Positions 8,980 through 61,737 of a DNA stretch of 64,000 nt are shown piece by piece. This DNA is from a virus (lineage: Duplodnaviria; Heunggongvirae; Uroviricota; Caudoviricetes). Numbering within the stretch: position 1 is the stretch's first letter; every line of letters starts with the position of its first letter. The notes beneath the pieces are model-generated. The model ran no database searches and was not told the origin of the DNA. It saw only the letters and a program-made list of their open reading frames with translations. The stretch lies in IMG/VR virus record IMGVR_UViG_3300035182_000695, positions 26,755-90,754 of that record, one strand, 5' to 3'. The position numbers were made by a program, and so were the translations under genes.

Positions 8980-9072
8980 TTGTTAATAACTATTTTCAAA
9001 ATAAACTTGTCAGTTCAAAAAATAGTTATACATTTGTGTAACGAATAAGTTAAACACTAGCAAAATCAGACA
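8980..9072 (+). promoter_or_regulatory. Conserved promoter/leader element, copy 2
   Basis: TTGTTAATAACTATTTTCAAAATAAACTTG ... TACATTTG(9028-9035) ... TGTAACGAATAAGTTAAACA; ATG at 9075. Confidence 0.55.
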
Positions 9073-15477: not shown

Positions 15478-16377
15478 ATGGTAGAATTAAATTTAGTTCA
15501 CAAAAACAAGTCAGAGGTAGAATATACTGTAAGTAATTTTCCTGACACGCAAAAGCAAATTAAAATCGAAATATTTTGCAGTCTTAATTTACACAATTCA
15601 GCATACGATAAAATCGTTAATGAAGGCGTTGTAATTAAATCACGAATGTCTTGGGATGATGTGCAATTAATTATCGCAACAGTAAAAGCTTTAAGACAAC
15701 TAAAAGCTAAAGAAATACATTTATGCGTTCCTTACTTTCTAGGCGCAAGAAGTGATAGAAAATTCGAGCAAGGTTCAAATAATTATTTAAAAGATGTTAT
15801 TTGTCCAATTATAAACTCTTTGGAGTTGGATAGTGTTTCTGTACTAGACGCTCACAGCTTTGTGTTAGAAGCTTGTTTAAAGAACTTCCAGAGTGTTGAC
15901 AATTATCAATTAGTTAGGTACGCTCAAAACGATTTACTGAAAAAGAATGTTGATGCAGGTAAATCTACTCATCTAAACGATTTTATCTTAGTTGCTCCTG
16001 ATGCAGGTGCGTCTCACAAAATATATAAGCTAGCTGAAAATATTGGATATAAAGGCGAAATTATTATATGCAGTAAAGAAAGAGGTACTGACGGCAAGTT
16101 AAGTAAAACAGTTGTTCCTGATTTTGATTACTCGAAAGACATTGTAATTGTAGATGATATTTTTGATTATGGAAATACATTTATGAATATAGTTAAAGCT
16201 GTTAGTCATAAGACAAATGAATCAGTTAGTCCAATAGGTAAAAAATATTTAATAGTAACGCACGCTATTCAAGAAAAAGGATTGGAAGCTGCTTCTGAAT
16301 ACTTTAACACTATTTACACTACTAATTCGGTAAGAGAATTTGATTTACCGAAAGTTAAAATCTTAGATATATTTTAA
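15478..16377 (+). CDS. Prs-family phosphoribosyl-pyrophosphokinase homolog (PRPP synthetase-like; candidate ADPR-PP synthetase Adps of a NARP1 pathway)
   Basis: 299 aa; IHLCVPYFLGARSDRK (Prs: ITAVIPYFGYARQDRR), LVAPDAGASHKIYKLA (Prs: VVSPDIGGVVRAR), IVDDIFDYGNTF (Prs PRPP loop VLVDDMIDTGGT). Confidence 0.6.
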   Translation: MVELNLVHKNKSEVEYTVSNFPDTQKQIKIEIFCSLNLHNSAYDKIVNEGVVIKSRMSWDDVQLIIATVKALRQLKAKEIHLCVPYFLGARSDRKFEQGSNNYLKDVICPIINSLELDSVSVLDAHSFVLEACLKNFQSVDNYQLVRYAQNDLLKKNVDAGKSTHLNDFILVAPDAGASHKIYKLAENIGYKGEIIICSKERGTDGKLSKTVVPDFDYSKDIVIVDDIFDYGNTFMNIVKAVSHKTNESVSPIGKKYLIVTHAIQEKGLEAASEYFNTIYTTNSVREFDLPKVKILDIF

Positions 16378-16826: not shown

Positions 16827-18434
16827 ATGGAATTTTTAGAAATCTATTGGACCGACGTGTACAAAACAGGTCACAAACCAATGCTTCCAGTTGGAAGTAC
16901 ATTGATGGCTTCAAACAACACGCCTAGAAGCGACAAGAACACAAACTGCCCGAACAACGGAGAGCTAGTTGTTTTTGGAGGTCAAATGTTAGTTCGCAAA
17001 ATGAAAAGAGATTGGGACGTTAACTTCTTTCAACGACCTATTGAAGAGATTGATAAGTTTGGAGAAGACTTAACTAAAATGTTAATGCTATCTGAGCCTT
17101 ATGACACTACTCACTTTAAAGAGTTGCATCAATTAGGCTACTTGCCAGTAAGAATTAAATCAATGCCTGAGGGTAGTGTAGTGCCTTACAAAATACCTTC
17201 GTTCACTATTGTAAACACTCAGCCTTTAAATGGCGTTATTGTTGATTGGTTAGTGAATTATTTAGAAACAATTTTATCTGCTGAATCTTGGCAAGCGCCA
17301 ACATCTGCAACATTCTCTCGCTCTCTTAGAAAATTAGGAAAAGAGTGGATTATGAAAACTGATGAGAAAAATCTTTGGTTTTTAGATTATCAGTTTCACG
17401 ATTTCTCTATGCGTGGAATGGGCGGTAAATCCGCAATTGTGAATTCGGGTTTAGGGTTCGCAACTAGCTCAAGAGGTTCTGACACGCTTCCTGTTATTCC
17501 TGCCGCTCGAATGTACTATGATGAAGTTGAGCCTTGTATTAATTCAGTTATTGCGTCAGAACACGCTATTATGTGTTCCTTGACAGGCTTCTTTATGCAG
17601 AACTCGGACGGAAATTGGGATAAAGTTGCTGATTTTGAATATGAGATGTTTGTTTACTTGTTGAAGAAATTCCCTAACGGTATTTTATCTTTAGTAATGG
17701 ACACTTGGGATTTATGGAGAGCTATTACTCAGTATTGTGTTAGAGCAAAAGATATTATTATGGCTCGAAACGGTAAATTAGTAATTAGACCTGACTCAGG
17801 AAATCCTGCCGATATTATTTGCGGAATAAACAGTAAAGATAGTTTGAGTAGTGATGTTAAGTGCTTCGCTGATTTACATCACAAAGCGTATGGAGAAGGT
17901 GTTCATAAATTCGGCGGAGATATTATCAACGAGAATCAATTTAAAGGCGTTATAGAGCTTTTGTATGAAATATTTGGAGGAACTATAAATGAACAAGGGT
18001 ATAAAGTTTTAGATTCTCATATCGGCGCTATTTATGGAGACAGTATCAATTATAAAGCTGCTGTTGAAATATTCACTAGACTTGCTAAAAAAGGATTCGC
18101 TTCAACAAATATTGTTCTTGGCATCGGCTCTTACAGTTTGCAATTCGTAACGAGAGACACACACTCGATGGCTCAGAAAGCAACTTACATTGAAGTTTGC
18201 GGAAAAGGAATAGAAATCTTTAAAGACCCTATTACTGATGGCGGAATGAAAAAATCAGCTAAAGGATTATTAATGGTTTACAAAGATGATGCAGATGGAA
18301 AAATTAAGTTGAAGGACCAATGTACTTGGGAACAAGAGCGTCAAGGATTGCTTCAAGTTATATTTGAAGACGGTAAATTTTACAACGAAACAACTCTTAC
18401 TCAAATCAGAGAGAGATTAAATTCAACACTATAA
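16827..18434 (+). CDS. Nampt-family nicotinamide phosphoribosyltransferase homolog (NadV-like; candidate Namat of a NARP1 pathway)
   Basis: 535 aa; multiple blocks alignable to NAMPT: IKSMPEGSVVPYKIPSFTIVNTQP, FHDFSMRGMGG, VIRPDSGNPADII, GIGSYSLQFVTRDT, IEIFKDPITDGGMKKSAKGLL. Confidence 0.7.
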   Translation: MEFLEIYWTDVYKTGHKPMLPVGSTLMASNNTPRSDKNTNCPNNGELVVFGGQMLVRKMKRDWDVNFFQRPIEEIDKFGEDLTKMLMLSEPYDTTHFKELHQLGYLPVRIKSMPEGSVVPYKIPSFTIVNTQPLNGVIVDWLVNYLETILSAESWQAPTSATFSRSLRKLGKEWIMKTDEKNLWFLDYQFHDFSMRGMGGKSAIVNSGLGFATSSRGSDTLPVIPAARMYYDEVEPCINSVIASEHAIMCSLTGFFMQNSDGNWDKVADFEYEMFVYLLKKFPNGILSLVMDTWDLWRAITQYCVRAKDIIMARNGKLVIRPDSGNPADIICGINSKDSLSSDVKCFADLHHKAYGEGVHKFGGDIINENQFKGVIELLYEIFGGTINEQGYKVLDSHIGAIYGDSINYKAAVEIFTRLAKKGFASTNIVLGIGSYSLQFVTRDTHSMAQKATYIEVCGKGIEIFKDPITDGGMKKSAKGLLMVYKDDADGKIKLKDQCTWEQERQGLLQVIFEDGKFYNETTLTQIRERLNSTL

Positions 18435-21203: not shown

Positions 21204-21296
21204 TGTTAATAATTATTTTCAAAATAAATTTGCGCATCTGAATTAATGTTGTACATTTGTGTAACATTTAAGTTAAACACTATTAAAATCAAGGCA
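21204..21296 (+). promoter_or_regulatory. Conserved promoter/leader element, copy 4
   Basis: TGTTAATAATTATTTTCAAAATAAATTTG(21229-32)...TACATTTG(21252-59)...TGTAACATTTAAGTTAAACA. Confidence 0.6.
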
Positions 21297-24377: not shown

Positions 24378-24731
24378 ATGAAAATTAAATTTACATTAAA
24401 GAAATTAGGAGATACAGATTACTACTTACTTAGCGATGAAAAAATATTCGGCGAAGGATTTAGATTTGATTTACAACGTAACTCTGTCGGGTTTATTGAT
24501 GATGATAACTACTATAATAATTATCCAAATGATTTCAAAAAAATAATCGCATCTACAAATCATTTACAAAATACATCAATGATAGATTTTTTAAACCTAT
24601 TCGATGTTTTTGATAATAAGCCGCTAGAAGCAAAGAAGTGTTCTTGGACTGTTATTGCAGAAACAGATGTTAACAACAAAATAAAAATAACTGACGGTTA
24701 CGTTAAAATATTATCCATCGAAAATGACTAA
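24378..24731 (+). CDS. hypothetical protein
   Basis: 117-aa ORF. Confidence 0.5.
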   Translation: MKIKFTLKKLGDTDYYLLSDEKIFGEGFRFDLQRNSVGFIDDDNYYNNYPNDFKKIIASTNHLQNTSMIDFLNLFDVFDNKPLEAKKCSWTVIAETDVNNKIKITDGYVKILSIEND

Positions 24732-25464
24732 AGAAGAAGTATTACAGAAATGTACAATTGAAGGATTTAATGTCAAATTACCTGATGTTAACTTAGACAG
24801 AAAAGTATATTTAGAAGTAAGTAAATCACTTGAGCTGATTGGCGGAAAGTGGACTAGCGGAAAAATAAAGGCATTTGTTTTTAAAGAAGACCCAACCGAG
24901 TTGTTATCCCAAATAGCAAATGGAGATAAAAGGAACTTAAAAAAAGAATTTCAATATTTTGAAACGCCTCCCGAAATAGCAGACTTTATAGTTAAAGAAT
25001 CGGAGCTTAAAGAAAATCAATCTGTGCTTGAGCCTAGCGCAGGTCAAGGCGCTATTGTAAAAGCAATCAATAGATTATATCCTAATAAAAAAGTTAGCTG
25101 CTATGAGCTAATGCCAGTAAATCAAACTATCTTAAAAAAGATTGATACTGTTGATTTTTTAGGAGAAGATTTTTTAAATACAGATAATAAACAAAAGTTT
25201 GAGGTTATAATTTCAAATCCGCCTTTCTCAAAAAACCAAGATATAACTCACGTTAGAGAAATGTATGAGCGTTTAGAATTCGGAGGTAAGTTAGTTGCGA
25301 TAACATCGAAGCATTGGGAATTATCTACTAATAAAAAAGAAACTGAGTTTAGGGAATGGCTTAAAGACGTTTACGCAGAAGAGCTTGATATACCTGCCGG
25401 CTCATTTAAAGAAAGTGGAACGCAAATAGCAACTAAAATTTTAATAATCAATAAATACTATTAA
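24724..25464 (+). CDS. N6-adenine DNA methyltransferase (gamma-class motif order), orphan
   Basis: 246 aa; motif X FETPPEIADFIV, motif I EPSAGQGAIV, motif IV NPPF (VIISNPPFSK). No adjacent restriction endonuclease recognised. Confidence 0.55.
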   Translation: MTKEEVLQKCTIEGFNVKLPDVNLDRKVYLEVSKSLELIGGKWTSGKIKAFVFKEDPTELLSQIANGDKRNLKKEFQYFETPPEIADFIVKESELKENQSVLEPSAGQGAIVKAINRLYPNKKVSCYELMPVNQTILKKIDTVDFLGEDFLNTDNKQKFEVIISNPPFSKNQDITHVREMYERLEFGGKLVAITSKHWELSTNKKETEFREWLKDVYAEELDIPAGSFKESGTQIATKILIINKYY

Positions 25465-28129: not shown

Positions 28130-28224
28130 CTGTTAATAACTATTTTCAAAATAAATTTGCACATCTAAATTAATGTTGTATATTTGTGTAACATTTAAGT
28201 TAAACACTATTAAAATCAGACATT
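28130..28224 (+). promoter_or_regulatory. Conserved promoter/leader element, copy 5
   Basis: TGTTAATAACTATTTTCAAAATAAATTTG(28155-58)...TATATTTG(28179-86)...TGTAACATTTAAGTTAAACA; ATG at 28225. Confidence 0.6.
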
Positions 28225-28497
28225 ATGGCATTCGGCATTCAAGTAGATTTCGACAAAAATCAGATTACAATTCCAAGAGAATACTCAAGAATTGAGCCTG
28301 TGGATATTACTTCTTTTAAATTCGACAATGTTGTTGTTTTTACTAAAATAACAAATTACGAAATTGGTAAAATGACAATTGCAAGTATAATTGACATTAT
28401 TCAATTTTTAGGTGTTGAAAACAACTTAAAGATTTGTAAAAAAAGCGATTGGGATAAAGCTCAAGATAAATTAATTCAAGCAGTAAACAACAACTAA
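28225..28497 (+). CDS. hypothetical protein
   Basis: 90-aa ORF after the leader. Confidence 0.55.
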   Translation: MAFGIQVDFDKNQITIPREYSRIEPVDITSFKFDNVVVFTKITNYEIGKMTIASIIDIIQFLGVENNLKICKKSDWDKAQDKLIQAVNNN

Positions 28498-28498
28498 T

Positions 28499-28975
28499 AT
28501 GATTGATATTGAAATAGCTAAACAGCCAGACGCAATAGAAAAATATTTCTGCGAACCTTTCGCTAAATTAGAGTGCGAACCAATGGATGAAGAAGTTACA
28601 GAACTTTTCGCTATGCTTATGTTTGCGACTAATGAATCTGTTGATATTGAAGCGGCAAGAAAAGAATGGCAGTTTCAGGTTCTCGAAAAAAGATTATCTA
28701 TTCTGCAATACGAAATGGATGAGCGAATGAAAATATTTATTTTCTTCTTAACAACTGGAACTCCTGGTAAATTCATTATGTATCTGTACTATCTACAATA
28801 TATGTGTAAACAAAGAGGGCAAACATTTATAAAATTTGAAGATGTGATGCACTTTTTACCAAACGGATTTCCTAGTGATTCTCAAATGAATGAATTATGG
28901 GTAAACTGCAAATTATCTGACGGCTCTAATTTAATAGACAAAGGATTAGCTTCTAAATCAATTTTATTTAACTAA
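28499..28975 (+). CDS. hypothetical protein
   Basis: 158-aa ORF. Confidence 0.5.
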   Translation: MIDIEIAKQPDAIEKYFCEPFAKLECEPMDEEVTELFAMLMFATNESVDIEAARKEWQFQVLEKRLSILQYEMDERMKIFIFFLTTGTPGKFIMYLYYLQYMCKQRGQTFIKFEDVMHFLPNGFPSDSQMNELWVNCKLSDGSNLIDKGLASKSILFN

Positions 28976-28976
28976 G

Positions 28977-29261
28977 ATGAAAAAAGCGCATAAAGATTTG
29001 TACATAAAAATAAGAAGCGAATGTATTAAGCAAAACGAAGAGCTTATTAACGGCGATAAATTGATAAATGGGTTCTCAATCGAGCAAGCAAAGAAAAACG
29101 CTCTATATGACTTAGAAATCGATTTAAAGCATAAAGAACTTAGAATCACTTTACCTGAATTATTGCTTAATAGTGTGGAAGATTGCATTTTGATTGCCAA
29201 AAACAGAATGAAAGCGAGAAGAGAAAAAATGGTTAACGAATACTTAAAATCAGCAGCATGA
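28977..29261 (+). CDS. hypothetical protein
   Basis: 94-aa ORF. Confidence 0.45.
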   Translation: MKKAHKDLYIKIRSECIKQNEELINGDKLINGFSIEQAKKNALYDLEIDLKHKELRITLPELLLNSVEDCILIAKNRMKARREKMVNEYLKSAA

Positions 29262-29512
29262 AAAATATTATAGCAACGCAAACTTGGGGCGCAGATGAAT
29301 GTCATCACGGAGGATTAATTATATCATTCGGAGACCCAAAAGATTTTAAAGTGCAACGATTACAGATTGTTGATTTAGGTGTTGCTAAAGCAGTAGCTAA
29401 AGTTCCTGAGATGATTGCGCAATTAGAAGACTGCGCTAGAATATTTGAAGAAGAAATGGCTTATGAGAAAGCAATTGAAATAAAACAACTATTAAAATCA
29501 ATGCAAGTATGA
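29258..29512 (+). CDS. hypothetical protein
   Basis: 84-aa ORF. Confidence 0.45.
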   Translation: MKNIIATQTWGADECHHGGLIISFGDPKDFKVQRLQIVDLGVAKAVAKVPEMIAQLEDCARIFEEEMAYEKAIEIKQLLKSMQV

Positions 29513-29877
29513 TAATCGGATTCAATAAACGCTTTGTTCCTTTAATCGAGGATGGCTCTAAAATACATACTGTTCGCAAAGATGCTGCTAAAAGATGGAA
29601 AGCTGGCAGAACGATGCACTTTGCAACAGATGTTCGTAAAAAGAATATGAAAGTATTTAGAACTGGCGATTGTAAAAATACTGAGCGAATTGATATTGTT
29701 TGGAACGAAAAAAAGACTGATGTATCAATTAAAATAGGCTCTAAAAAACTTAATAAAGAAAAAAGACTAGAGTTTGCAAAAGCTGACGGATTCGCAACAA
29801 TGGAAGATTTTAAATCTTGGTTTAGCGAAGACTTTATTGATTACAAATTAATTCATTGGACAGAAAAAAAATACTAA
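29509..29877 (+). CDS. possible ASCH-domain protein
   Basis: 122 aa; N-terminal IEDGSKIHTVRK resembles the ASCH GxKxxExR motif. Weak. Confidence 0.3.
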   Translation: MIIGFNKRFVPLIEDGSKIHTVRKDAAKRWKAGRTMHFATDVRKKNMKVFRTGDCKNTERIDIVWNEKKTDVSIKIGSKKLNKEKRLEFAKADGFATMEDFKSWFSEDFIDYKLIHWTEKKY

Positions 29878-29881
29878 TACT

Positions 29882-30142
29882 ATGAGAACGGAAGATTTTA
29901 ACCTTGATGAATTAATTGAAGCATTGACAGGAACAACTGAGTCAATTGCGCATTTTCTTCCTGACGGAATGGTTGAAGAAGACTTAACAGAAGAAGAAGT
30001 TCAACGCATAGACGAAGAAATATTTTTGTGCGCAACTTGCGGCTGGTGGTGTGAGATTTCTGAAAATGTAGAAAGCGACGATTCAGAACTTCATTGCAGA
30101 GATTGCAAAGATGAAGACTCTGATGACGAGGACGAAGATTAA
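29882..30142 (+). CDS. zinc-ribbon protein with an acidic tail
   Basis: 86 aa; CATCGWWC...CRDCKDEDSDDEDED. Confidence 0.45.
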   Translation: MRTEDFNLDELIEALTGTTESIAHFLPDGMVEEDLTEEEVQRIDEEIFLCATCGWWCEISENVESDDSELHCRDCKDEDSDDEDED

Positions 30143-30159
30143 TAATAAAAGAAAAACAA

Positions 30160-30588
30160 ATGGAAAAGAAAAATGCAATAATTAAAGAATTCAATCTTAG
30201 CGAAGATGCTAAAGAATCTACTTTTACTATATTCAAAATGAGAGATATGGAGAAGATGATAGATGTATTTACATCTGCTTTAATAACTCAATTAGTAAAA
30301 AGATTTCGTGATGCAAAAGAATGGCAAATACTTGGACTTGTTGAGTGCGAAATAAAGCGCAATGATTCAAACTCTGACAATGAAATTTACGCTGTTGAGA
30401 AAAAAGCAAACAAGCTTCAAAAAGATAGAAAATATTTTAAGCAAGATTTTGATATGTCGGCCGAAGATTCAATATTTCCTTCCGAATATATTTGGCAGAT
30501 TAATGGCGCAACTGAAACATCTTACTACGGCACTATTTTACTACCGATGCACTCAAACTTATTTTTAAAAATCTCTTACTCGTTCTAA
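30160..30588 (+). CDS. hypothetical protein
   Basis: 142-aa ORF. Confidence 0.5.
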   Translation: MEKKNAIIKEFNLSEDAKESTFTIFKMRDMEKMIDVFTSALITQLVKRFRDAKEWQILGLVECEIKRNDSNSDNEIYAVEKKANKLQKDRKYFKQDFDMSAEDSIFPSEYIWQINGATETSYYGTILLPMHSNLFLKISYSF

Positions 30589-30639
30589 ACAAAAACAAAC
30601 AGATTTGCAATTTGCGAATCGAGAATTAAACAAACAATT

Positions 30640-31143
30640 ATGCTGTCAGACAAAGAAATATCAGAAAGAAACGGTTACTTAATCACATTAGTTACCGAAG
30701 TGAGCGAGAGAATGGACTCAGTAATTCACGTTACGGAATTACCGCACAAACCAAAATTAATAAACGCAGATTATACAAGACAATTAAATTGTTATGTAAA
30801 TAATTTTCACTTGATTTTAAAAGGCGGTAACGATGAAGTGTTCTACGAAATAAAATTGAAAGCAATTAGTGAGATGAAAAACTTCGATGAGATTGTTCAA
30901 AAAATAATTGAGTGGATTGCAATATTTGAACACACTAGAGTTTATACTGTGTCTTTAATGAATACTGATTTATTCGTTACAGGTTTTAACCATCATAATA
31001 AAATATTAAAGACTAACGCATATCCTGTTTTTGCTAGATACTCTCCTATTTGTTACTACGACTTACAAAGAGCAGAGGATATTGTATATAAATTTGATAC
31101 GTATAATTTAGTAATAAATAATAATGAATCGTATGGATTCTAA
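30640..31143 (+). CDS. hypothetical protein
   Basis: 167-aa ORF. Confidence 0.5.
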   Translation: MLSDKEISERNGYLITLVTEVSERMDSVIHVTELPHKPKLINADYTRQLNCYVNNFHLILKGGNDEVFYEIKLKAISEMKNFDEIVQKIIEWIAIFEHTRVYTVSLMNTDLFVTGFNHHNKILKTNAYPVFARYSPICYYDLQRAEDIVYKFDTYNLVINNNESYGF

Positions 31144-31519
31144 AAATGAAAAACAATTTCCGTCTTGGAATCTAGTTCAATATTCATTCGCTGTTGAATG
31201 GTGGAGAGAAACATATAACGGTATCGGTCACTTCGATAAGGACTTGTATGAAAAGTTTCTAAGACGGCAACATAACATAAATATAAATCAAATAGAGTAT
31301 AAACAAATAAATCAAAACGAAAAACAAATGAAAACATCAATCCAATTAATCATCGCCGCTGTTATAATTATAGCAATTAACGGCGTCTTCTTTGAGTACG
31401 CAATAAGCAGAGATTTGCCGTTACTCTTAACTATTATCTCTGCAATAGCTATCTTGGTTATAGATGGCTGGTTTTTCATTCAATTAGTAAAAAAAATAAA
31501 ACAAATTTTAAACTTTTAA
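31124..31519 (+). CDS. membrane protein (2 C-terminal TM helices)
   Basis: 131 aa. Confidence 0.45.
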   Translation: MNRMDSKNEKQFPSWNLVQYSFAVEWWRETYNGIGHFDKDLYEKFLRRQHNININQIEYKQINQNEKQMKTSIQLIIAAVIIIAINGVFFEYAISRDLPLLLTIISAIAILVIDGWFFIQLVKKIKQILNF

Positions 31520-31532
31520 AAAACAAATAAGT

Positions 31533-32492
31533 ATGATTAGTATTTTAATTTCAGTAGCGGTATTAGTAATTGCACTAGGCTACGCAATAGCAAACAGAAA
31601 AAACATTTACGATAGCGATGGAGACTTCGTTTTATCAGGATTAAAAACGCCAATCGCTATTTTAGTAGTTGGATTATTAATCGCATTCATTCAACCGTAT
31701 TGTCTTAAAAGAATTGACTCAGGAAATATTGGAATTAAAGTAAATTTAATTGGAGATAAGCGAGGTGTTTCTGATTACACTTACAAAAACGGATGGACTG
31801 CTTACAATGAATGGTCCGAAAGCTTATATGAATTTCCAACTTTTCAACAACATACAGAATATCAAAATCAAAGTGTTATTACAAAAGGAGGGTTTCAAGC
31901 TGATATAAAACCAACATTCAACTATTCAATTAAGCCGGAAGCTGTTGGCGATATGTTTATGAACCTTCGTGTGCCGATTAAACAAGTTGAGCAAGGATGG
32001 ATGATGAATGCCATTTGTGGCTCTATTAATGATGTAGCAAATAAATGGACTGTTGATGATATTTTTAACGAGCGAGAAAAATTTGAAGCCGCTATTACTG
32101 CTGAGTGCAATAAGCGTGTAGCCAAATGGTTTTTAGTTAGTCAGTTGAGAACAAATATAATGCCGCCAGAAGCCTTGAAAAATGCGATTATAGAAAAAAC
32201 AAAAGCCATTCAAGAAGCTCAAGGTCAAGTTCAAAAAGCAATAGTTGCAGACGCAAAAGCAAAAGTTAAAATGGCGACCGCTAGAGGTGATTCTGCTCAA
32301 GCTGTTATTGGAGCATCTGGTAAAGCATTAGCTGCTGAAATTACTGCGAAAGGCGAAGCTGCTGCAATGAAACTTAAACAAATGCAATTAACACCAATGT
32401 ACATCGATTATATTAGAGCGAACAATTGGGATGGAAAATATCCTGCTACTATGTTAGGCGGTAATTCACAGACGCTTTTAAATCTTAAATAA
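31533..32492 (+). CDS. SPFH/band-7 (stomatin/HflK-like) membrane protein
   Basis: 319 aa; N-terminal TM helices, then a C-terminal Ala/Glu/Lys-rich coiled segment ...AEITAKGEAAAMKLKQ reminiscent of the AEGEAEA tail of SPFH proteins. Confidence 0.4.
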   Translation: MISILISVAVLVIALGYAIANRKNIYDSDGDFVLSGLKTPIAILVVGLLIAFIQPYCLKRIDSGNIGIKVNLIGDKRGVSDYTYKNGWTAYNEWSESLYEFPTFQQHTEYQNQSVITKGGFQADIKPTFNYSIKPEAVGDMFMNLRVPIKQVEQGWMMNAICGSINDVANKWTVDDIFNEREKFEAAITAECNKRVAKWFLVSQLRTNIMPPEALKNAIIEKTKAIQEAQGQVQKAIVADAKAKVKMATARGDSAQAVIGASGKALAAEITAKGEAAAMKLKQMQLTPMYIDYIRANNWDGKYPATMLGGNSQTLLNLK

Positions 32493-32559
32493 AATATTCT
32501 TATCTAGCTATTCTAAAGATAGCAACTTTATATTAATTAAGTGAGAGAACCCATAGAGC

Positions 32560-32700
32560 AGCTTAGATAATCAAAGGATTTGGGGAAGCCTTTTATAAAG
32601 TAGATTTGATAGGATTGGCAACACGCACTCGAAGGCATAGTGCGTTTAAATGTCTAGTAGGCCTGTTCATCCACTAGCGGTTGCCAATTTAAAAACCATA
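32560..32700 (+). ncRNA. candidate structured non-coding element (nested hairpins, locally GC-richer)
   Basis: 323-bp ORF-free gap. TTGGCAAC[ACGCACT-CGAAGGCAT-AGTGCGT]TTAAATGT[CTAGT-AGGCCTGTTCATCC-ACTAG]CGGTTGCCAA forms two hairpins enclosed by an 8-bp closing stem. Confidence 0.2.
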
Positions 32701-32815
32701 GAGAAGTTTAACAAAGATGAATACAATAAACAACATAATTCTAATTGTGATAATTTGGGAAGTAGTTAAGTACTTTTTAAAGAAAGCGTTTTACAAAATA
32801 ATAAAGTAAATAAGT

Positions 32816-33247
32816 GTGGGCTTAGTAAATAAATATTCTTTTATATCAATGCGAAATAATCAAGTTACAGATGAGCAAATTTGTATTGGATTATTTTATA
32901 TGAATGAAACAGGCGTTGAGTTTAGATTCTCTGAAAAGAAAATTGAATTTACTAAAACATTAAATCCTGATGCTCATAGATTATTAGTTTTTTATGTTGA
33001 CCAAATGAAGCGTGCTGTTTTGTTAAAATCACTTACAATGCAGGAAGTAATTAATGAAGCTCACAGACAAAACGGAATCATTTATATTTCTGAGCCAAAA
33101 ATTATAAACATACAAGAGCCTTTAAATCTAATAAATGACAATAGCTCTTTTATAGGACGCTTTTTTGAAAAGAACGTAGATACACTACCGATTTTTAATA
33201 AAAATGAATCTGTTGGAATAAACATACATACAAAAAAAATAGGATAA
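32816..33247 (+). CDS. hypothetical protein
   Basis: 143-aa ORF; the true start may be the internal Met at ~32849. Confidence 0.45.
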   Translation: MGLVNKYSFISMRNNQVTDEQICIGLFYMNETGVEFRFSEKKIEFTKTLNPDAHRLLVFYVDQMKRAVLLKSLTMQEVINEAHRQNGIIYISEPKIINIQEPLNLINDNSSFIGRFFEKNVDTLPIFNKNESVGINIHTKKIG

Positions 33248-33249
33248 TT

Positions 33250-34491
33250 ATGGAAGAGAACACTAAAGAAAACGAACACATCGAAGAAGTTGCGACCGAA
33301 GAAGCTACCGGCTCTCTTGTATCAAAAAACAAAGAGCGTGGTTTAATTATTGAAAAACTAAAAGCCGAAAAAATAACAGACGGTAAGATTCAAATGATTA
33401 CTGTCGCATTTGAGCCTATGCTTAATAAGCTAAGAGAATTAGATGAAGAGTACGCAGATATTTTAACGCAGTTAGAAACAGAAGGTCCTACAAAAGAACT
33501 TTGCGAAAAAGCTCGTTCACTTAGATTAAAAATGGTTCATTGCAGAGGTGATGTTAAAGGCGTTCATAAACTTCAAAAAGAAGAAACAATCAGATACAAT
33601 AGAGCTGTTGATGGAGTTAAAAATATTTTTGATTTCGCTGTTACTAGCAAAGAAGAAAAACTTTCATCTATTGAAAATCATTTTGAAGAGCTTGAAAAAG
33701 AAAGACTAGCTTCAATTAAAGCGGTTCGTGAAGAGAAGCTAAAGGCTTTTAATTACGATGCTAGCAGCATTGATTTATCAAAGGTTGAAGATAGTATGTT
33801 CAACTTAATTTTAAATGGCGCAGAGAAAGCATTCAACGATAAAATAGCCGCAGATAAAAAAGCAGAAGAGGAGAAAAAATTACAAGAAGAGAAAGAGAAA
33901 CAAGAACTTGCAGATAAATTAAAAAAGGAAGCCGAAGAAAAATTAGCCGCAGATAAAAATAAGAAAGAGAAAGACGAAAAGGCTGCATTGCTAAAAGTTC
34001 AACAAGAAGAAATACAAAAGCTTAATGCTGATAGATTTTTAGAATTAGTTCCTTACAATACTAATGCAGATGTTATTGATTTGGGTAATATGACAGAAGA
34101 TGCTTATTTAAAACTACTATCAGACAGTAAAATAAAGCACGATAGCGATTTAAAAGAGAAGGAGCTGGCTAAAAAAGCTCAAGATAAAAAAGACGCTGAG
34201 CTTAAAGCTCAAAAAGAAGCTAACGAAAAATTACAAAAAGAATTAAAGGAAAAGGAAGATGCAGATAAAAAGAAGAAAGAAAAGGAAGAATCGGATAAAA
34301 AAGCAAAAGCGTTAGAAGATAAAAGATTAGCAAAACAACCTGATAAAATAAAAATGATTGCTTGGATTGATTCGATACAATTACCTGATGTCATTGTTAA
34401 AGAACATGAATCTAAAGATGTTGCTACATCAGTAACTCAAAAGTTCAACGCATTCAAAAAATGGGCTAAGTTAGAAGTTGATAAAATTTAA
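33250..34491 (+). CDS. highly charged K/E-rich coiled-coil protein
   Basis: 413 aa with KEKEK/AEEKL low-complexity repeats over the central ~200 aa. Confidence 0.55.
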   Translation: MEENTKENEHIEEVATEEATGSLVSKNKERGLIIEKLKAEKITDGKIQMITVAFEPMLNKLRELDEEYADILTQLETEGPTKELCEKARSLRLKMVHCRGDVKGVHKLQKEETIRYNRAVDGVKNIFDFAVTSKEEKLSSIENHFEELEKERLASIKAVREEKLKAFNYDASSIDLSKVEDSMFNLILNGAEKAFNDKIAADKKAEEEKKLQEEKEKQELADKLKKEAEEKLAADKNKKEKDEKAALLKVQQEEIQKLNADRFLELVPYNTNADVIDLGNMTEDAYLKLLSDSKIKHDSDLKEKELAKKAQDKKDAELKAQKEANEKLQKELKEKEDADKKKKEKEESDKKAKALEDKRLAKQPDKIKMIAWIDSIQLPDVIVKEHESKDVATSVTQKFNAFKKWAKLEVDKI

Positions 34492-34559
34492 CTAAAAAAA
34501 AGATAGTATATTTGTAAATTTATTATATTTGTAGTGCGATAATAAAAAAACTAAAAATG

Positions 34560-35990
34560 ATTTTCAAAAAAAATATTTAAAAAAACGTCTTCAAGCAAGC
34601 AGGAACTCTCGTCATTTTTGGCTTTTGTTATCGCAAACCTGCTTGCGAGAAGGCTATTTATTCAATGTTAGTAAGCTCAAAGCATAGACTCGAACTCAAC
34701 AATAAGCAGAGAACACTAGCGTTTAAACACGCTGGAATAGCTAGACACGCTTGGAATTGGGGAGTTAAAATGTGTCAAGAAGCTTCTGAAAAAAGAGAGA
34801 AATTGCCGTCAGCAATGACGCTTCATAAAAAATTAGTTGCGGAAGTTAAAGTTGAAAACCCTTGGTATTATGAAGTTTCAAAGTGCGCTCCGCAAGAGTC
34901 TTTGAGAAATTTAGACGAGGCATGGCGTAATTATTTTCACAACTTAAAAAATGGAGCAATTCAGAAAAAGAAAAAATCATATATTTCAGAACGAAAACGA
35001 AAAGGATTGCCGATTAATACCAAAAAACTTTTCGACTTAGGTAAGCCAAATTTTAAGAAAAAAGGGATGCGTGATTCTTTTTGTTTAAACTCTCATGCAA
35101 TAAAAATATCAGGAAATAAAATCAAAGTTCCTATATTCGGTTGGCTTAAAATTAGTGAAAAATATAATGATAGTTTTATTATAAAAGGTGTGGTCATGTC
35201 AAGAACGGCTAACGATTGGTTTGTAAGTTTTCATAGAGAAGTTGATAATTTAAAAATTGAAGGAATTGAATCAAAGCCTAGTATCGGCGTTGATTTAGGA
35301 ATAAAAACTTTAGCGATTTTAAGTGATGGTGTTGAATTTAAAAATGTAAATGCTTTCGGGATAAATAAAAGAAAATTAAAATTAGCGCAAAGAAAACAAT
35401 CTAAAAATTTCAATAAAGACAGTAAAACACAGAGTAATAACTATAAAAAAGCAATTAAAAAAGTAGCGAAAATTTATCAAAGAATAGCAAATATTCGCAA
35501 AGATGCAACTCATAAATTAACAACATATCTTGCTAAGAACCACAGCCTGATAGGGATTGAAGATTTAAACGTGAGTGGAATGATGAAAAACAGAAAGCTA
35601 TCAAGCGCAATCGCTGATGGCGGATTTTACGAATTTCGCAGACAATTAGAGTATAAAACTCTTTGGTACGGCTCGAAATTAGTAGTAATCGACAGATTTT
35701 TTCCATCATCAAAAACTTGTTGTTGCTGCGGAAACATCAAAGAAAAATTAAAATTGTCAGAGCGAATATACGACTGCGAAGCTTGCCAATTGAGCTTAGA
35801 CAGAGATTTAAACGCTGCGATAAACATACAAAATTATGCGGTGAGTTACACCGTGAATGTCTGTGGAGAGTTACAAAAACAGTCGATTTCGACTGAAACT
35901 CAATGAAGCAGAAAGTAAACAGCAAAAATAAAACTTGCAAAAGTTTAGTATTGTATAAGTTTTGCGTAACGGCGATTTAAAAGAAAAGAA
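34560..35990 (+). mobile_element. IS200/IS605-family TnpB-only insertion element (IS1341-like)
   Basis: Intact tnpB flanked by a left hairpin GCAAGCAGG...CCTGCTTGC (34597-34652) and right-end hairpins plus the ACGGCGATT motif (35958-35966) shared with the truncated copy at 169-177. Boundaries approximate. Confidence 0.5.
34665..35906 (+). CDS. tnpB: TnpB (IS605 OrfB; RuvC-like nuclease with C-terminal zinc finger)
   Basis: 413 aa; N-terminal MLVSSKHRLELNNKQRTLAFKHAGIARHAWNWG (TnpB N-terminal consensus), GIEDLNVSGM (RuvC-II region), CCCCGNIKEKLKLSERIYDCEACQLSLDRDLNAAINI (zinc finger plus RuvC-III). Confidence 0.75.
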   Translation: MLVSSKHRLELNNKQRTLAFKHAGIARHAWNWGVKMCQEASEKREKLPSAMTLHKKLVAEVKVENPWYYEVSKCAPQESLRNLDEAWRNYFHNLKNGAIQKKKKSYISERKRKGLPINTKKLFDLGKPNFKKKGMRDSFCLNSHAIKISGNKIKVPIFGWLKISEKYNDSFIIKGVVMSRTANDWFVSFHREVDNLKIEGIESKPSIGVDLGIKTLAILSDGVEFKNVNAFGINKRKLKLAQRKQSKNFNKDSKTQSNNYKKAIKKVAKIYQRIANIRKDATHKLTTYLAKNHSLIGIEDLNVSGMMKNRKLSSAIADGGFYEFRRQLEYKTLWYGSKLVVIDRFFPSSKTCCCCGNIKEKLKLSERIYDCEACQLSLDRDLNAAINIQNYAVSYTVNVCGELQKQSISTETQ

Positions 35991-36016
35991 AATTACAATA
36001 ATAAAAATAAATAAAT

Positions 36017-36475
36017 ATGGCAAAACAAATGAATATGCTTGCGTTAGCTATTTCAATAGCGTCAAAAGCGTTTGAAGGAAAATTAGATAAAGGCGGTAAG
36101 CCTTACATCTTACATTGTTTACGAGTAATGAATGGAGTTGACCAAAGGGATGAAGACAAAATGATTTCAGCTATTTTGCACGACCTTATAGAGGATACTG
36201 ATGAGAAGTCGGAAATTAATTACACATTCGCTTTGCTTTCAGAAATGGGATTCTCTGAGCGTGTAATTAGAATTTTACATTTACTTACTCATTCGCCTGA
36301 AACACCTTATCAAGATTATATAAAAGCTATTTCTGTTGATAAAGATGCTACTGAAATTAAGCTTAGAGACTTAGAAGATAATTCTAATATCGCTAGACTG
36401 AAATCAGTTCGCAAAAAGGATTTCGATAGATTAGAAAAATATCATCACGCTTATTTATACTTAAACGACAATTAA
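36017..36475 (+). CDS. HD-domain small alarmone hydrolase (RelA/SpoT-type (p)ppGpp/(p)ppApp hydrolase domain only)
   Basis: 152 aa; GKPYILHCLRVM and ISAILHDLIEDTD match SpoT hydrolase motifs GEPYIxHPLxVA and AALLHDVVEDT. Confidence 0.6.
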   Translation: MAKQMNMLALAISIASKAFEGKLDKGGKPYILHCLRVMNGVDQRDEDKMISAILHDLIEDTDEKSEINYTFALLSEMGFSERVIRILHLLTHSPETPYQDYIKAISVDKDATEIKLRDLEDNSNIARLKSVRKKDFDRLEKYHHAYLYLNDN

Positions 36476-36561
36476 GATGAGAGATTTTTATATCTTAGCA
36501 AATGAATATCCGTTAACTACATTAGCAATAGCGATATTCATAATTTCAATTGTCTCAATAA

Positions 36562-36930
36562 TTGAAGACGGATTTAAACGTAAAAAATAAACATAAAATG
36601 AAAACACACATCTTTAAACCAAAATTCAAATGTATTGTTCAAGGAGAGCAACAATCGGCAGAAGCATACGCTGAAAAATTAGAAGCGTTCGCTAAAGAAG
36701 TTCACGCAAGAACCGGATTATCTTACATAGCACCAATTATGACATCTTCATCAGACGGAAGAATGACAACTATGTTTCATTGGTCTGAAAACGAAGAAAC
36801 AAACGAAGTTGTTTGGGAAAAAGTTGTTAGAGAAATGGCTCGTTTTTTACCTACAATATTAGAAACTTCAATGATTTCAGAAATTGCTCAAGACCTTACT
36901 GATAGATACAACCGACCATCTGAAAAATAA
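36562..36930 (+). CDS. hypothetical protein
   Basis: 122-aa ORF. Confidence 0.45.
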   Translation: MKTDLNVKNKHKMKTHIFKPKFKCIVQGEQQSAEAYAEKLEAFAKEVHARTGLSYIAPIMTSSSDGRMTTMFHWSENEETNEVVWEKVVREMARFLPTILETSMISEIAQDLTDRYNRPSEK

Positions 36931-36934
36931 TAAT

Positions 36935-37336
36935 ATGGCAACAAAAATACATACAAAAAGAGTTAAAGAGCGTGTTCAGGAAAAGCGAAACAGGTTTATT
37001 GAGAAATATCAAAAATTTGATAAATGGCTTTACTCTATCGGATTTAGAAGCGCAACATTTAAAGAAAATTCTACTTATTTAGATTACAACTATCACACAG
37101 ACATTGATACTATGTACGCAGTTGAATGTTATATACACGACACTCTTAAACTTTCAATTAGATTTATTCGAGAAAATAAAAGACATATTTTTTATGTTAC
37201 AGGTGGCGCACCATACGAGCGTTCTGTTGGAATAAAGCTTGTTGATTTTCAGAAAGATATTTTTAGACAAGTAACTGAATTGAAGCGCAAAAAAATTCAA
37301 GAATTAAATAAAATACCAACACTATTACTGATTTGA
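36935..37336 (+). CDS. hypothetical protein (start at MATKIHTK)
   Basis: Track ORF 36884..37336; the internal ATG at 36935 follows the upstream stop. Confidence 0.45.
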   Translation: MATKIHTKRVKERVQEKRNRFIEKYQKFDKWLYSIGFRSATFKENSTYLDYNYHTDIDTMYAVECYIHDTLKLSIRFIRENKRHIFYVTGGAPYERSVGIKLVDFQKDIFRQVTELKRKKIQELNKIPTLLLI

Positions 37337-37337
37337 T

Positions 37338-37526
37338 ATGTATAAAATTTCATATAGAGGGATATTAAAATACGGTTATGTGACCGTACGGTTTTTTGGC
37401 AAAAAAGGTGGTGTAACAAATAAACCGCCAACAAAATTTAGATTTAAAATGATAGCTAATATTTGTTGTTGGTTACTAAACAAATCAGATGAAGAATTTA
37501 ATACATTTAAAGTAGTAAAAGAATGA
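37338..37526 (+). CDS. small hypothetical protein
   Basis: 62-aa ORF. Confidence 0.35.
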   Translation: MYKISYRGILKYGYVTVRFFGKKGGVTNKPPTKFRFKMIANICCWLLNKSDEEFNTFKVVKE

Positions 37527-37918
37527 AAGCAATCATAACAAGTTTTGAAAAAGACAAAGAAAACAAACTACACAAACACGTTTGCGTAAAAATCCCATTT
37601 AAAAATGTAGAAGTCAGTATAGCGTTTGATAACAGCTTAGGCGCTATGGAAGATTTGCGTAGATACAACTTGTGCGTGTATGATAAAAATGGCGCAAACA
37701 TAACTGAGCGTATCTTAGGAGCATCTGAAAACACACATTCATTTTCTGCTGAATCATTTGTAGAGTTTATCAACAAAGTAAATGATTTTGATAAGCGAGC
37801 AGACTTAGGTAACGCTCTTCAAGCTGCTAAAAAATTAATTGACAAAGCTTATGCGTCTCCAAACAACGAAGAGGGTTATAAAGATATTATTCAAGCAATT
37901 TCTAACACTAGAATATAA
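37523..37918 (+). CDS. hypothetical protein
   Basis: 131-aa ORF. Confidence 0.5.
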   Translation: MKAIITSFEKDKENKLHKHVCVKIPFKNVEVSIAFDNSLGAMEDLRRYNLCVYDKNGANITERILGASENTHSFSAESFVEFINKVNDFDKRADLGNALQAAKKLIDKAYASPNNEEGYKDIIQAISNTRI

Positions 37919-38205
37919 TGAGAAAAGACACGCACTCTGCTTTACTTCAAATAAAAGACGATAAAGGTAATGTATCAACAGCGTTCGTTAGTGGAATACC
38001 TGATAAGTGCGAACACGATGATAATGGCGAGACCATGCAATTCAACGACGCAGGCGAATATTTTAAAGAAAGTGAAATTCCTGACCACAAAACTAATTAT
38101 GATGAATGGTTGGCATTCACAACGAAGCATAGATTGACAGGCGGCTGCGTTTCTTGCTCTAAATGTGGAAAGCCATTTGAATTAGATTTATTCGCAATGC
38201 CTTAA
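37918..38205 (+). CDS. hypothetical protein with a C-terminal zinc ribbon
   Basis: 95 aa; CVSCSKCG. Confidence 0.45.
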   Translation: MRKDTHSALLQIKDDKGNVSTAFVSGIPDKCEHDDNGETMQFNDAGEYFKESEIPDHKTNYDEWLAFTTKHRLTGGCVSCSKCGKPFELDLFAMP

Positions 38206-59841: not shown

Positions 59842-61737
59842 TTATGGTGCTATTAAAACTAAATTATATCTCATTCTCATTGTTCCGCTAACTTCATATT
59901 CTATAAAATCACTTCCGCTAGACCTCCCTACAAGTGTATTCAAGCTACTCGGCGCATCACAAAGTAAATCTGCCGGCACGGCTGCTGAATATACGGTATG
60001 TTGAAATCCAACGCTAAACGTATCGTTTGGTATAAATCTAGTTATGTGATTATTTGATATGTTAATTATTTTTTTTATAACTAATCCTGTGCAATTAATC
60101 AATTTCACTAAACCAAAGAAGTTAGTTCCTAAAGGCGGAATGGTTAATGTAAGGGTTGGTAAATCATATATTGCAGGGTCTGAGCAATCTAATGTAGTCA
60201 ACCAATTACTGAATCCTTTTCTTATTTTTGAATTCACTTGACTTATTGTTAGAATTCCCAAATCAACTGTATTTTCATCAGACACTTCGCATCCAGTTAT
60301 GTCAACGCCAATAGTTGTTGAAGTAACATTTAATACGCCTTGATTTGATAGATTATTTTTCAAAACAAGTCCATCAATTGAACCGAGACTCATTTGACCT
60401 CTTGATTCTAAATTACAAGAATCTACTGTTCCTGAAAGTGTGTTTATTTTTATAATTGAGCCGTTAGTAACTCTATTATTTCTAAGCTCACCGCCTACTA
60501 CAATACTTGGCGCATTAATTTCACTAGGAAACGCATCTGATGTTTGGGCGATATAATTTTTATTAGCTTTGCCTTTCATCTCTCCTAATATTAACCTTGC
60601 GCTCGACTCAAGAATATTATTTCTTACTTCGCCGGCATCTTTTTCGCTAGTCGCATCTGTCATAACAGAGCCAGAGGTTAATGAGTTGTTTGAAAAAGTT
60701 GCATAGCTATTTGTGCAAATCATAAATGAGCCTGCTAAAACTTTGTTTCCATAACAATTTGAATCTCTACCCCATTGAAACATTAATAATGAATTATTTG
60801 GTCCGCTAACAGTTAAATCAACTTCGTTTTCAAGATTGTCAGCTCTGTAAACAACATAATTTAACTTAACATTATATTTTATAACATCTACTGCTGCTAT
60901 GTAGCCCGTTGTTGTACTTTTAGCTAACACAACCCAATTCACTAAATCTGTATCAGGCGCAGTTCCCCAAACGCCAGTTAAATTTTTATAGTTGAAATTA
61001 TTCCAAACAACACAATCTCCAATCGCAACCGGCTTAGCTAATATACTCCACAAACCTAAAGCGACCCCGAAACCAGGAACGCCTGAATAATTTCCAACTT
61101 TTAAATAATCTGCATTCAAGAAGAATCCATATCCTCCAACAGTAACAGTATTAGAACTAGCGCCTTGAACAACAACGCCAACATCTGAAAATTGAGCGTC
61201 TGTTACTAAATAATTTTGACTTACAACTACTGTATTGGCTGCAATTAAAGCAATTAGCTGAGCGTTAGTTACACTTAGTAATCCTCCAATATTAACAATC
61301 GTTTGACCTACGCCATTAGATGCAACTACTGCACCAATAAAATTAAGTATAGGTTGATTCGGTAAATTAACACCTTGATTCGCTATAATGTGTCCGCTTG
61401 TTGTTGATGCTGAGTAATTGAAAGAGCCTAAATAATTAGCGTTATCCATTACTGTAATTTCGGCGCAACCGCCGTTAACTGCAATAATAGTTGATGCCGC
61501 CCCATTTATAGTTTGACTTACTCCTGCATTTATAGTAATGTTGTTTACTGATGCGTTGTTTGATTTATCAACGATGTAAAGTTTCCAAAGTGTATTCCAG
61601 TAATTAGCAGGAATAGCAGATAAATTAATGACAACAGGACCCAACGTCGTATCGCACTCAAGAGTAACGTCGTCATTTCTTAAAATAACAACACCGCTAA
61701 CGGTTCTTATATTATTGGGGTATTTTGTTGAAAACAT
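59842..61737 (-). CDS. large tail fibre/tailspike-like protein with the shared N-terminal module
   Basis: 631 aa; N-terminus ...VTLECDTTLGPVVINLSAIP...NNITINAGV; long N/G/S/T/V-rich body suggests a beta-helix. Confidence 0.55.
   Translation of the reverse strand: MFSTKYPNNIRTVSGVVILRNDDVTLECDTTLGPVVINLSAIPANYWNTLWKLYIVDKSNNASVNNITINAGVSQTINGAASTIIAVNGGCAEITVMDNANYLGSFNYSASTTSGHIIANQGVNLPNQPILNFIGAVVASNGVGQTIVNIGGLLSVTNAQLIALIAANTVVVSQNYLVTDAQFSDVGVVVQGASSNTVTVGGYGFFLNADYLKVGNYSGVPGFGVALGLWSILAKPVAIGDCVVWNNFNYKNLTGVWGTAPDTDLVNWVVLAKSTTTGYIAAVDVIKYNVKLNYVVYRADNLENEVDLTVSGPNNSLLMFQWGRDSNCYGNKVLAGSFMICTNSYATFSNNSLTSGSVMTDATSEKDAGEVRNNILESSARLILGEMKGKANKNYIAQTSDAFPSEINAPSIVVGGELRNNRVTNGSIIKINTLSGTVDSCNLESRGQMSLGSIDGLVLKNNLSNQGVLNVTSTTIGVDITGCEVSDENTVDLGILTISQVNSKIRKGFSNWLTTLDCSDPAIYDLPTLTLTIPPLGTNFFGLVKLINCTGLVIKKIINISNNHITRFIPNDTFSVGFQHTVYSAAVPADLLCDAPSSLNTLVGRSSGSDFIEYEVSGTMRMRYNLVLIAP

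Follow-up and report, generated by a model that had tools for sequence, protein, structure and literature searches.

The closest characterised relative of the small alarmone hydrolase (SAH) described here is Aph1, encoded by a prophage of Bacteroides caccae (PDB code: 7SMG). The gene under study lies at positions 36017..36475 of a 64,000-nucleotide (nt) stretch of the Caudoviricetes virus record IMGVR_UViG_3300035182_000695 (positions 26,755 to 90,754 of the record), which was analysed as a whole and is called the window below. Aph1, a tetramer, cleaves pApp, ppApp and pppApp with undetectable hydrolysis of ppGpp (Ahmad et al. 2023, PMC10083569); its gene adjoins the 3' side of that of its cognate toxin, MuF-Apk2, and Aph1 acts as the immunity protein. 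Mesh1, RelH, PaSAH and the hydrolase domain of the long Rel and SpoT enzymes have the same HD fold with an H..HD..ED..D..N core, however, they are about 180 amino acids (aa) long, possess two extra helices and a guanine-stacking arginine, and hydrolyse (p)ppGpp.

Other described relatives act on toxins. The SAH of Salmonella phage PVP-SE1, classed as PbcSpo, neutralised on co-expression five of five toxic small alarmone synthetases (toxSAS), namely CapRel, PhRel2, FaRel2, PhRel and FaRel (Jimmy et al. 2020, PMC7229694). Four of these five toxins act by pyrophosphorylating the CCA end of tRNA. C. marina ATfaRel (a PbcSpo enzyme and type IV antitoxin) and PaSpo of Salmonella phage SSU5, likewise SAHs, neutralise both (pp)pApp-making and tRNA-pyrophosphorylating toxSAS. 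According to the literature, MESH1 and ATfaRel, both SAHs, restore the aminoacylation of pyrophosphorylated tRNA, and PaSpo is in routine use for the detoxification of FaRel2 and CapRel. ATfaRel, which removes pyrophosphate from the tRNA CCA end and is the model for the counter-defence role proposed below, differs from the window protein in that it belongs to a three-gene toxin-antitoxin locus with its toxin and degrades ppGpp too.

We propose that the window gene encodes a compact, metal-dependent SAH of the Aph1/PbcSpo type, that this enzyme is an adenosine 3'-pyrophosphohydrolase and that it is carried as a resident accessory gene countering toxins of the RelA/SpoT homologue (RSH) type, a reading which we consider likely as a whole. 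It would add to the phage-borne Aph1/PbcSpo-type hydrolases without a partner toxin a further case, from a large and previously unsampled phage with Bacteroidota as its probable hosts; the recurrence of such toxin-less hydrolases in phages lends support to the idea of a counter-measure against RSH-type toxins. The findings leave current understanding unchanged.

Gene, family and fold

The open reading frame (ORF) on the plus strand runs from ATG to TAA, with the stop codon within the coordinates given, and encodes 152 aa including M1. It is a real and intact phage gene, ordinary in kind, although there is slight uncertainty over where it starts, the majority of homologues being 140-148 aa long and beginning at the position of M5 or M7. 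The ratio of nonsynonymous to synonymous substitution rates (dN/dS) between the window gene and its counterpart on contig L009 is 0.077; the gene is under strong purifying selection.

The database matches of the protein far exceed what chance would give. Profile search placed it in PHROG 990, 'metal-dependent phosphohydrolase' (E 1.4e-43, residues 2-151). Among solved structures the best match of the single sequence was the '(p)ppApp hydrolase' Aph1 (E 3.4e-24, residues 5-151), followed at a distance by the next one (E 1.7e-5), and a profile built from 60 homologues gave the same order (E 1.3e-33 for 7SMG, 2e-9 for the next solved relative). The hydrolase domains of long Rel, RelA and SpoT were found by sequence search at E 1e-5 to 1e-2, NCBIfam spoT_relA matched the N-terminus only (E 4.9e-9), and the matches to the Mesh1, RelH, PaSAH and Rel/SpoT group are remote altogether (E 1e-9 to 1e-3). 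A precomputed match to Pfam HD_4 (PF13328) is present in many homologues.

The AlphaFold2 model (mean predicted local distance difference test score, pLDDT, 92.8; predicted template modelling score, pTM, 0.88) is a compact form, of about 150 aa, of the all-helical HD fold. In a Foldseek comparison with the PDB the four chains of 7SMG came first, with template modelling (TM) scores of 0.85-0.93, root-mean-square deviations of 1.7-2.4 A and 36-38% identity over a full-length alignment; Mesh1, RelH, PaSAH, Rel and SpoT followed at TM about 0.6-0.73, and the top 35 PDB matches are all RSH hydrolases or RSH enzymes. Normalised to the target, TM is 0.89-0.93 for the 141-144-residue chains of 7SMG versus 0.6 for the 178-aa Mesh1. 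The absence of two helices is a distinctive feature of Aph1 (PMC10083569). The best-supported family assignment is thus to the Aph1/PbcSpo-type adenosine 3'-pyrophosphohydrolases, predicted from sequence and narrower than SAHs in general.

The original prediction of a stand-alone RelA/SpoT-type HD hydrolase is borne out by sequence, profile, fold and an intact His/His-Asp/Glu-Asp/Asp/Asn active site. Both motifs on which it had relied are present, GKPYILHCLRVM at residues 27-38 (nt 36095-36130) and AILHDLIEDT at residues 52-61. The absence of a synthetase domain was also correctly predicted: residues 5-151 align to the 149-aa Aph1, the sole Pfam match is a borderline one to HD_4, and the hydrolase fold takes up all 152 aa, so that a synthetase domain could not be accommodated. 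The protein thus consists of a single hydrolase domain, and neither Pfam nor the 7SMG alignment showed a synthetase, TGS or ACT domain.

Homologues occur in 258 of 50,697 deposited phage genomes (tblastn), all below 60% identity, among them phages of Aeromonas, Streptococcus, Klebsiella, Escherichia, Cronobacter and Salmonella; the best match is in Leptolyngbya phage Lbo-JY46 (57% identity). The gene is therefore a further member of a known and widely spread phage gene family. One of these relatives is gp220 of PVP-SE1 (YP_004894027.1), which has 44% identity to the window protein over 143 residues and agrees with it at the D, D, R and K-Y signature positions treated below. Being the only PVP-SE1 match to the window protein (tblastn), gp220 is presumably the SAH that was assayed, and through its 44% identity the window protein may be placed, indirectly, in PbcSpo. 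Like the window gene, gp220 stands alone and is carried by a large lytic phage in its accessory or early arm; it differs in lineage and host (Enterobacteria, Vequintavirinae) and in an annotated N-terminus that is 17 aa longer.

Active-site residues and predicted substrate

Residues were mapped to Aph1 from a HMMER alignment, the numbering of which reproduces the published D24-K25-A26 and N114, and conservation was counted over the aligned sequences of the 120 best database homologues. Seven residues, H33, H55, D56, E59, D60, D118 and N122, are invariant in all 120 and align to the corresponding residues of Aph1 and Rel. The original prediction was to fall if the His-Asp metal dyad proved not to be conserved; since the catalytic residues are invariant, no such loss is seen, H55-D56 being kept in 120/120 homologues.

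Aph1 is characterised by a signature of six residues, D24, R96, D116, R119, K133 and Y134, of which R96 is the only one that lies away from the active site (PMC10083569). Four of the six are identical in the window protein: D24 is kept as D24 and R119 as R127 (each in 120/120 homologues), K133 as K141 and Y134 as Y142 (each in 119/120). D116 corresponds to N124, a conservative change (Asn in 88 and Asp in 28 of the 120), and R96 is lost, its place being taken by A104 (Ala in 107 of the 120).

The residues that are kept include those linked to base specificity. The guanine-stacking arginine of (p)ppGpp hydrolases is R43 in TtRel, and an Aph1 double mutant in which D24 and R119 were replaced (D24R+R119A) gains ppGpp hydrolysis (PMC10083569); the window protein carries Asp24 at the position of this arginine. 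An Asp at the guanine-stacking position makes adenosine 3'-pyrophosphohydrolase the best-supported prediction. The likely substrates are thus adenosine 3'-pyrophosphates, probably not (p)ppGpp, as judged from the residues. The enzyme had initially been credited with both (p)ppGpp and (p)ppApp; the placement with Aph1 together with D24 and R127 agrees with (p)ppApp, while the inclusion of (p)ppGpp was too broad. This also has a bearing on annotation, because genes of this kind often bear the label of a (p)ppGpp hydrolase or synthetase and their residues point to adenosine 3'-pyrophosphates.

By analogy with Aph1, H33, H55, D56 and D118 would hold the metal, probably Mn2+, and E59 and D60 would activate the water molecule. 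N122 is predicted to bind the ribose, D24 and R127 to choose adenine over guanine, and K141 and Y142 to contact the pyrophosphate. The hydrolase may thereby remove the 3'-pyrophosphate from pApp, ppApp and pppApp. Four of the five toxSAS named above modify the tRNA CCA end and the SAHs MESH1 and ATfaRel restore such tRNA, therefore an action of Aph1-type enzymes on the 3'-pyrophosphorylated adenosine of tRNA is plausible by analogy; to judge from the tested phage homologue, the window enzyme would probably also take the pyrophosphate off the 3'-terminal adenosine of tRNA modified by toxSAS/CapRel-type toxins.

A TnpB element beside a resident gene

As originally stated, the hydrolase gene is positioned directly 3' of a TnpB gene, its ATG lying 110 nt past the stop codon of a full-length tnpB (Table 1). 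When the sequence 3' of tnpB was aligned with that of six related loci, the columns were invariant up to GTAACGG (...TATAAGTTTTnnGTAACGG, ending at 35972), with no conservation beyond, and the conserved block (Table 1) probably marks where the omega-RNA scaffold, or the element on its right side, ends. As the block ends at 35972, the hydrolase ATG stands 44 nt outside the element, and the gene is not enclosed between the element's ends.

The exact hydrolase protein is found on five or six metagenome contigs, in all of which the same TnpB is upstream. Contig L009, the hydrolase of which has 89% protein identity to that of the window, is collinear with window positions 28189-38068 (about 10 kb) at 85-97% nucleotide identity, however, it is without TnpB: the 413-aa gene is followed by a 12-nt gap and then by the hydrolase ATG (junction L009 6194-6208). 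The junction reads ...GATAAAATTTAA|AACTAAATAAAT|ATGGCAAAACAA in L009 and ...GATAAAATTTAA CTAAA[~1.5 kb]TAAATAAAT ATGGCAAAACAA in the window. About 35 nt to the right of the GTAACGG end at 35972 are also missing from L009, which makes it ambiguous whether they belong to the element, and hence where its exact right boundary lies, or to an ancestral spacer. The hydrolase is a resident phage gene, and the TnpB element is a later arrival in a tight two-gene junction; the comparison of the window with L009 documents cleanly how a TnpB-only element has entered a phage operon.

Neither a plus-strand terminator-like site between tnpB and the hydrolase nor a promoter-like motif in the 44-nt spacer before the hydrolase was found. 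The element having been inserted between the hydrolase and its upstream gene, transcription of the hydrolase presumably passes through it. The tnpB 3' region folds weakly better than shuffled sequences (z = -2). A sigma-70 promoter scan gave 20 sites with 20 expected, and across the whole window Rfam at the gathering threshold showed no annotated omega-RNA family and the tRNA scan no tRNA. A guide of TnpB overlapping the hydrolase start codon, which would have linked the two genes by homing, was considered and rejected, as the scaffold ends at 35972, the guide would occupy about 35973-35992 and the ATG is at 36017.

The surroundings of the hydrolase are prone to insertions and deletions (indels), with TnpB on the left in the window and an extra gene on the right in L009. 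The latter, present only in L009, encodes 140 aa with a cREC_REC match directly 3' of the hydrolase (L009 6787-7209; window junction 36590/36582). Conversely, a 122-aa ORF (29509-29877) is present only in the window (indel 29504-29868 relative to L009). The synonymous divergence (dS) of the hydrolase between the window and L009 is 0.94, about twice that of the upstream gene (0.41), a difference that hints at recombination around the locus.

The 170-nt leader of tnpB (34490-34659) has 72% identity to positions 9796-9961 of an unrelated phage contig (L094), where the similar region precedes a gene of 441 aa that matches GIY-YIG weakly. Two TATATTTG boxes are present in the leader, as is a 9-bp hairpin (GCAAGCAGG / CCTGCTTGC) in which an A-T pair is replaced in L094 by a compensatory change to G-C. 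Selfish genes could share this leader for their regulation, or the hairpin could be that of a left end.

Table 1 Positions of the hydrolase, its active-site segments, the TnpB element and other genes in the window
Feature	Position	Strand	Evidence
Stand-alone HD-domain hydrolase gene, Aph1/PbcSpo-like SAH	36017..36475	+	PHROG 990, 7SMG, AlphaFold2, Foldseek, dN/dS
N-terminal active-site stretch: D24-K25-G26 (Aph1 D24-K25-A26, base-specificity position) and first predicted metal His, H33, in GKPYILHCLRVM	36086..36130	+	7SMG alignment
HD dyad H55-D56 and ED motif E59-D60 in AILHDLIEDT	36170..36199	+	120/120 homologues; aligned to Aph1 and long RSH
C-terminal stretch DLEDNSNIAR: predicted metal ligand D118, predicted ribose contact N122 (Aph1 N114), N124 (Aph1 D116), R127 (Aph1 R119)	36368..36397	+	
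K141-Y142, equivalent to Aph1 signature K133-Y134 (predicted pyrophosphate contact)	36437..36442	+	7SMG alignment; 119/120 homologues each
413-aa charged, coiled-coil-like gene upstream	33250..34491	+	No Pfam, PHROG or PADLOC match
TnpB-only IS200/IS605-type element, ~1.5-kb insertion relative to L009 (left edge 34492-34497, right edge ~35973-36007)	34492..36007	+	Global alignment and BLAST
tnpB gene, 413 aa	34665..35906	+	Pfam HTH_OrfB_IS605, OrfB_IS605, Cas12f1-like_TNB; PHROG 506 E 4.7e-105; NCBIfam guided_TnpB 291 bits
Conserved 3' block of the TnpB element, ending ...TATAAGTTTTGCGTAACGG	35921..35972	+	Alignment of 7 TnpB loci
RNA ligase, N-terminal PHA02142 OB-fold domain and RNA_ligase	5058-6086	+	Pfam 1e-33 and 1.6e-22
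Prs-like gene	15478-16377	+	PHROG 'ribose-phosphate pyrophosphokinase'
NAMPT-like gene	16827-18434	+	Pfam NAPRTase 4e-29; PHROG 448 'nicotinamide phosphoribosyl transferase' 1.7e-160
N6-type methyltransferase	24724-25464		

Proposed role, its alternatives and the genomic setting

We propose that the gene is resident in a large, novel phage as one of its accessory genes, that it is transcribed with a long plus-strand arm and that it operates without a partner toxin. Its likely role would be to sustain translation and ATP levels in the infected cell when an RSH-type toxin of the host or of a prophage fires, such as a (p)ppApp synthetase (FaRel, Tas1, Apk2) or the tRNA-pyrophosphorylating CapRel, PhRel and FaRel2. 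That phage SAHs neutralise toxSAS/CapRel toxins, as had been claimed at the outset, holds on co-expression for the PVP-SE1 enzyme, presumably the 44%-identical gp220, and a counter-defence role for the window protein is plausible by homology to this tested phage enzyme. In a narrower and more speculative form of the proposal, which we put forward tentatively and consider rather unlikely, the natural substrate of the phage clade would be the 3'-pyrophosphorylated CCA-adenosine of host tRNA, not free (p)ppApp, and the enzyme would be a dedicated counter-defence of Bacteroidota phages against abortive-infection toxins of the CapRel/PhRel type, forming an 'RNA repair' arm beside the phage RNA ligase, with Asn124 and Ala104 adapting the pocket to an RNA 3' end.

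Several observations weigh against the reading of the gene as an adenosine 3'-pyrophosphohydrolase that counters host or prophage toxins. The Pfam HD_4 (PF13328) match of the protein stands at 27.1 bits versus a cutoff of 27.2 and covers only the N-terminal 61 residues (11-71). Two of the six Aph1 signature residues differ (A104 for R96, N124 for D116), and because Asn predominates at position 124 in the clade, the specificity could differ from that of Aph1. Neutralisation by the PVP-SE1 SAH was seen on co-expression in E. coli, not in infection (PMC7229694), and the enzymes for which activity on tRNA was shown are MESH1, ATfaRel and PaSpo, none of which is of the Aph1 type. The presence of toxSAS in the host is presumed, the host itself being a guess. 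Lastly, the scan for a partner toxin described below covers 64 kb of a genome of ~146 kb, and modest ppGpp activity was recorded for two of the 12 Aph1 homologues assayed (PMC10083569).

The activity of these two homologues would suit a general (p)ppGpp hydrolase of the SpoT or Mesh1 kind, by which the phage would collapse the stringent response of the host, a growth-restricting state that limits its replication. The shared superfamily and catalytic core agree with this, homologues are annotated as '(p)ppGpp synthase/HD superfamily hydrolase' or guanosine-3',5'-bis(diphosphate) 3'-pyrophosphohydrolase, and one report indicates that the stringent response can restrict phages (10.64898/2026.01.27.700999). 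We nevertheless regard such an activity as unlikely, given the Asp24 of all 120 homologues where the guanine-stacking Arg sits (TtRel R43), an R127 that fills the space needed for the guanine carbonyl, the lack of detectable ppGpp hydrolysis in Aph1 with the same D/R pair (PMC10083569), and a 152-aa protein in which the two extra helices are absent and which scores TM 0.9 against Aph1 versus 0.7 against Mesh1 and Rel. A different nucleotide, either NADP(H), from which the 2'-phosphate would be removed as by MESH1, or a defence signalling nucleotide, would tie the enzyme functionally to the NAD+ reconstitution genes of the phage. MESH1 has been reported as an NADPH phosphatase, SAHs can be promiscuous, complexes of Mesh1 with NADPH and with 3'-phosphoadenosine 5'-phosphosulfate (PAPS) are among the Foldseek matches, and SAH homologues co-occur with NAD+ salvage genes in the window, in Lbo-JY46 (PncB ~6 kb off) and in Pakpunavirus Adele (both). 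The similarity to Mesh1 is, however, remote compared with that to Aph1 (E 1e-4 to 1e-7, TM ~0.7), the NAD+ genes of the window are 18 kb off and outside the gene cluster of the hydrolase, and an NADPH activity of Aph1-type enzymes is without support, which leaves this explanation very improbable.

The two remaining alternatives concern the origin and partners of the gene and not its chemistry. Self-immunity of the phage against its own (p)ppApp-synthetase toxin of the MuF-Apk2 type would follow the precedent of Aph1, which is itself a phage-encoded immunity protein (PMC10083569), and is compatible with a plausible Bacteroidota host and with the part of the genome lying outside the 64-kb scan. 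Immunity genes of the Aph1 type, however, sit directly downstream of the toxin (PMC10083569), and here Pfam scans of the ORFs of at least 100 aa on either arm of the window (57 on the plus strand and 32 on the minus strand) revealed neither a RelA_SpoT synthetase nor a MuF domain, the immediate neighbours of the hydrolase have no Pfam, PHROG or PADLOC match (PADLOC was run on the hydrolase and seven neighbours), and no partner toxin lies beside the homologues on six other contigs (L009, L010 and L093-L096). With no toxin in the window or in the homologue neighbourhoods, an Aph1-like self-immunity role is thus unsupported, and we hold it to be quite improbable. The original prediction had taken the adjacency to the insertion sequence as a hint that the hydrolase is mobile cargo, i.e. 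a passenger mobilised with the IS200/IS605 element. The short distances (110 nt from the tnpB stop and 44 nt from the conserved end of the element) and the indel-prone junctions to its left and right speak in favour of this suggestion. It is refuted by L009, in which the same flanking genes and the hydrolase are present in the same order without TnpB; moreover, the conserved right end of the element does not include the gene, which begins beyond it, the element is single copy in the window with a GC content equal to that of the phage, none of 80 viral loci with TnpB relatives has an SAH within 1.5 kb, and in five other phage contexts of hydrolase homologues with 67-78% identity no TnpB is adjacent. 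Practically no likelihood is left to the cargo explanation, and we retain that of a resident, toxin-less Aph1/PbcSpo-type hydrolase.

It had further been suggested that the hydrolase, an NAD+ cassette, an RNA ligase and a methyltransferase together make up an anti-defence island. These genes do exist (Table 1), and the Prs-like and NAMPT-like genes, which adjoin each other, resemble the two-gene phage pathway of NAD+ reconstitution (PMC12846349). However, the RNA ligase, the NAD+ pair and the methyltransferase lie at distances of 11-31 kb from the hydrolase, in an arm of 40 kb that is coded on one strand and consists mostly of small ORFs of unknown kind. As an island the set is loose, and its arrangement fits an accessory or early arm rather than a discrete island.

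The host is, as a reasonable guess from sequence features, a member of Bacteroidota. The window has a GC content of 32% and contains 13 occurrences of the Bacteroidota-type -33/-7 promoter pattern TTTG-N17-21-TAnnTTTG versus 4.7 expected, a number reached in none of 100 shuffles. A 27-nt motif, TTTGTGTAACATTTAAGTTAAACACTA, occurs in four copies upstream of plus-strand genes, with none expected (250-276, 9033-9059, 21256-21282 and 28183-28209, all on the plus strand), and in three cases (250, 21256 and 28183) it directly follows TTTG-N-TAnnTTTG, which suggests that these sites are early or middle promoters of the phage. CapRel representatives and MuF-Apk2 (p)ppApp toxins have been reported in Bacteroidetes.

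The phage looks like a representative of a very poorly sampled lineage. A DNA search with the 32.5-40 kb segment against deposited phages returned only a weak match, within tnpB, and with no match beyond tnpB the lineage is thus unsampled among them. A 631-aa protein of the late arm (59842-61737) had no tblastn match in the 50,697 phage genomes, and no relatives of the 413-aa protein upstream of the TnpB element were found in viral contigs. No capsid, portal or terminase gene was recognisable on the minus-strand arm by Pfam (E<=1e-4). This arm (40469-64000) has matches to an SLT transglycosylase, to GIY-YIG together with NUMOD3 (a homing endonuclease), to LEA_2 and to a C92 amidase, and the plus-strand arm also encodes a DSPc-type phosphatase and a Rieske-domain protein (Pfam).

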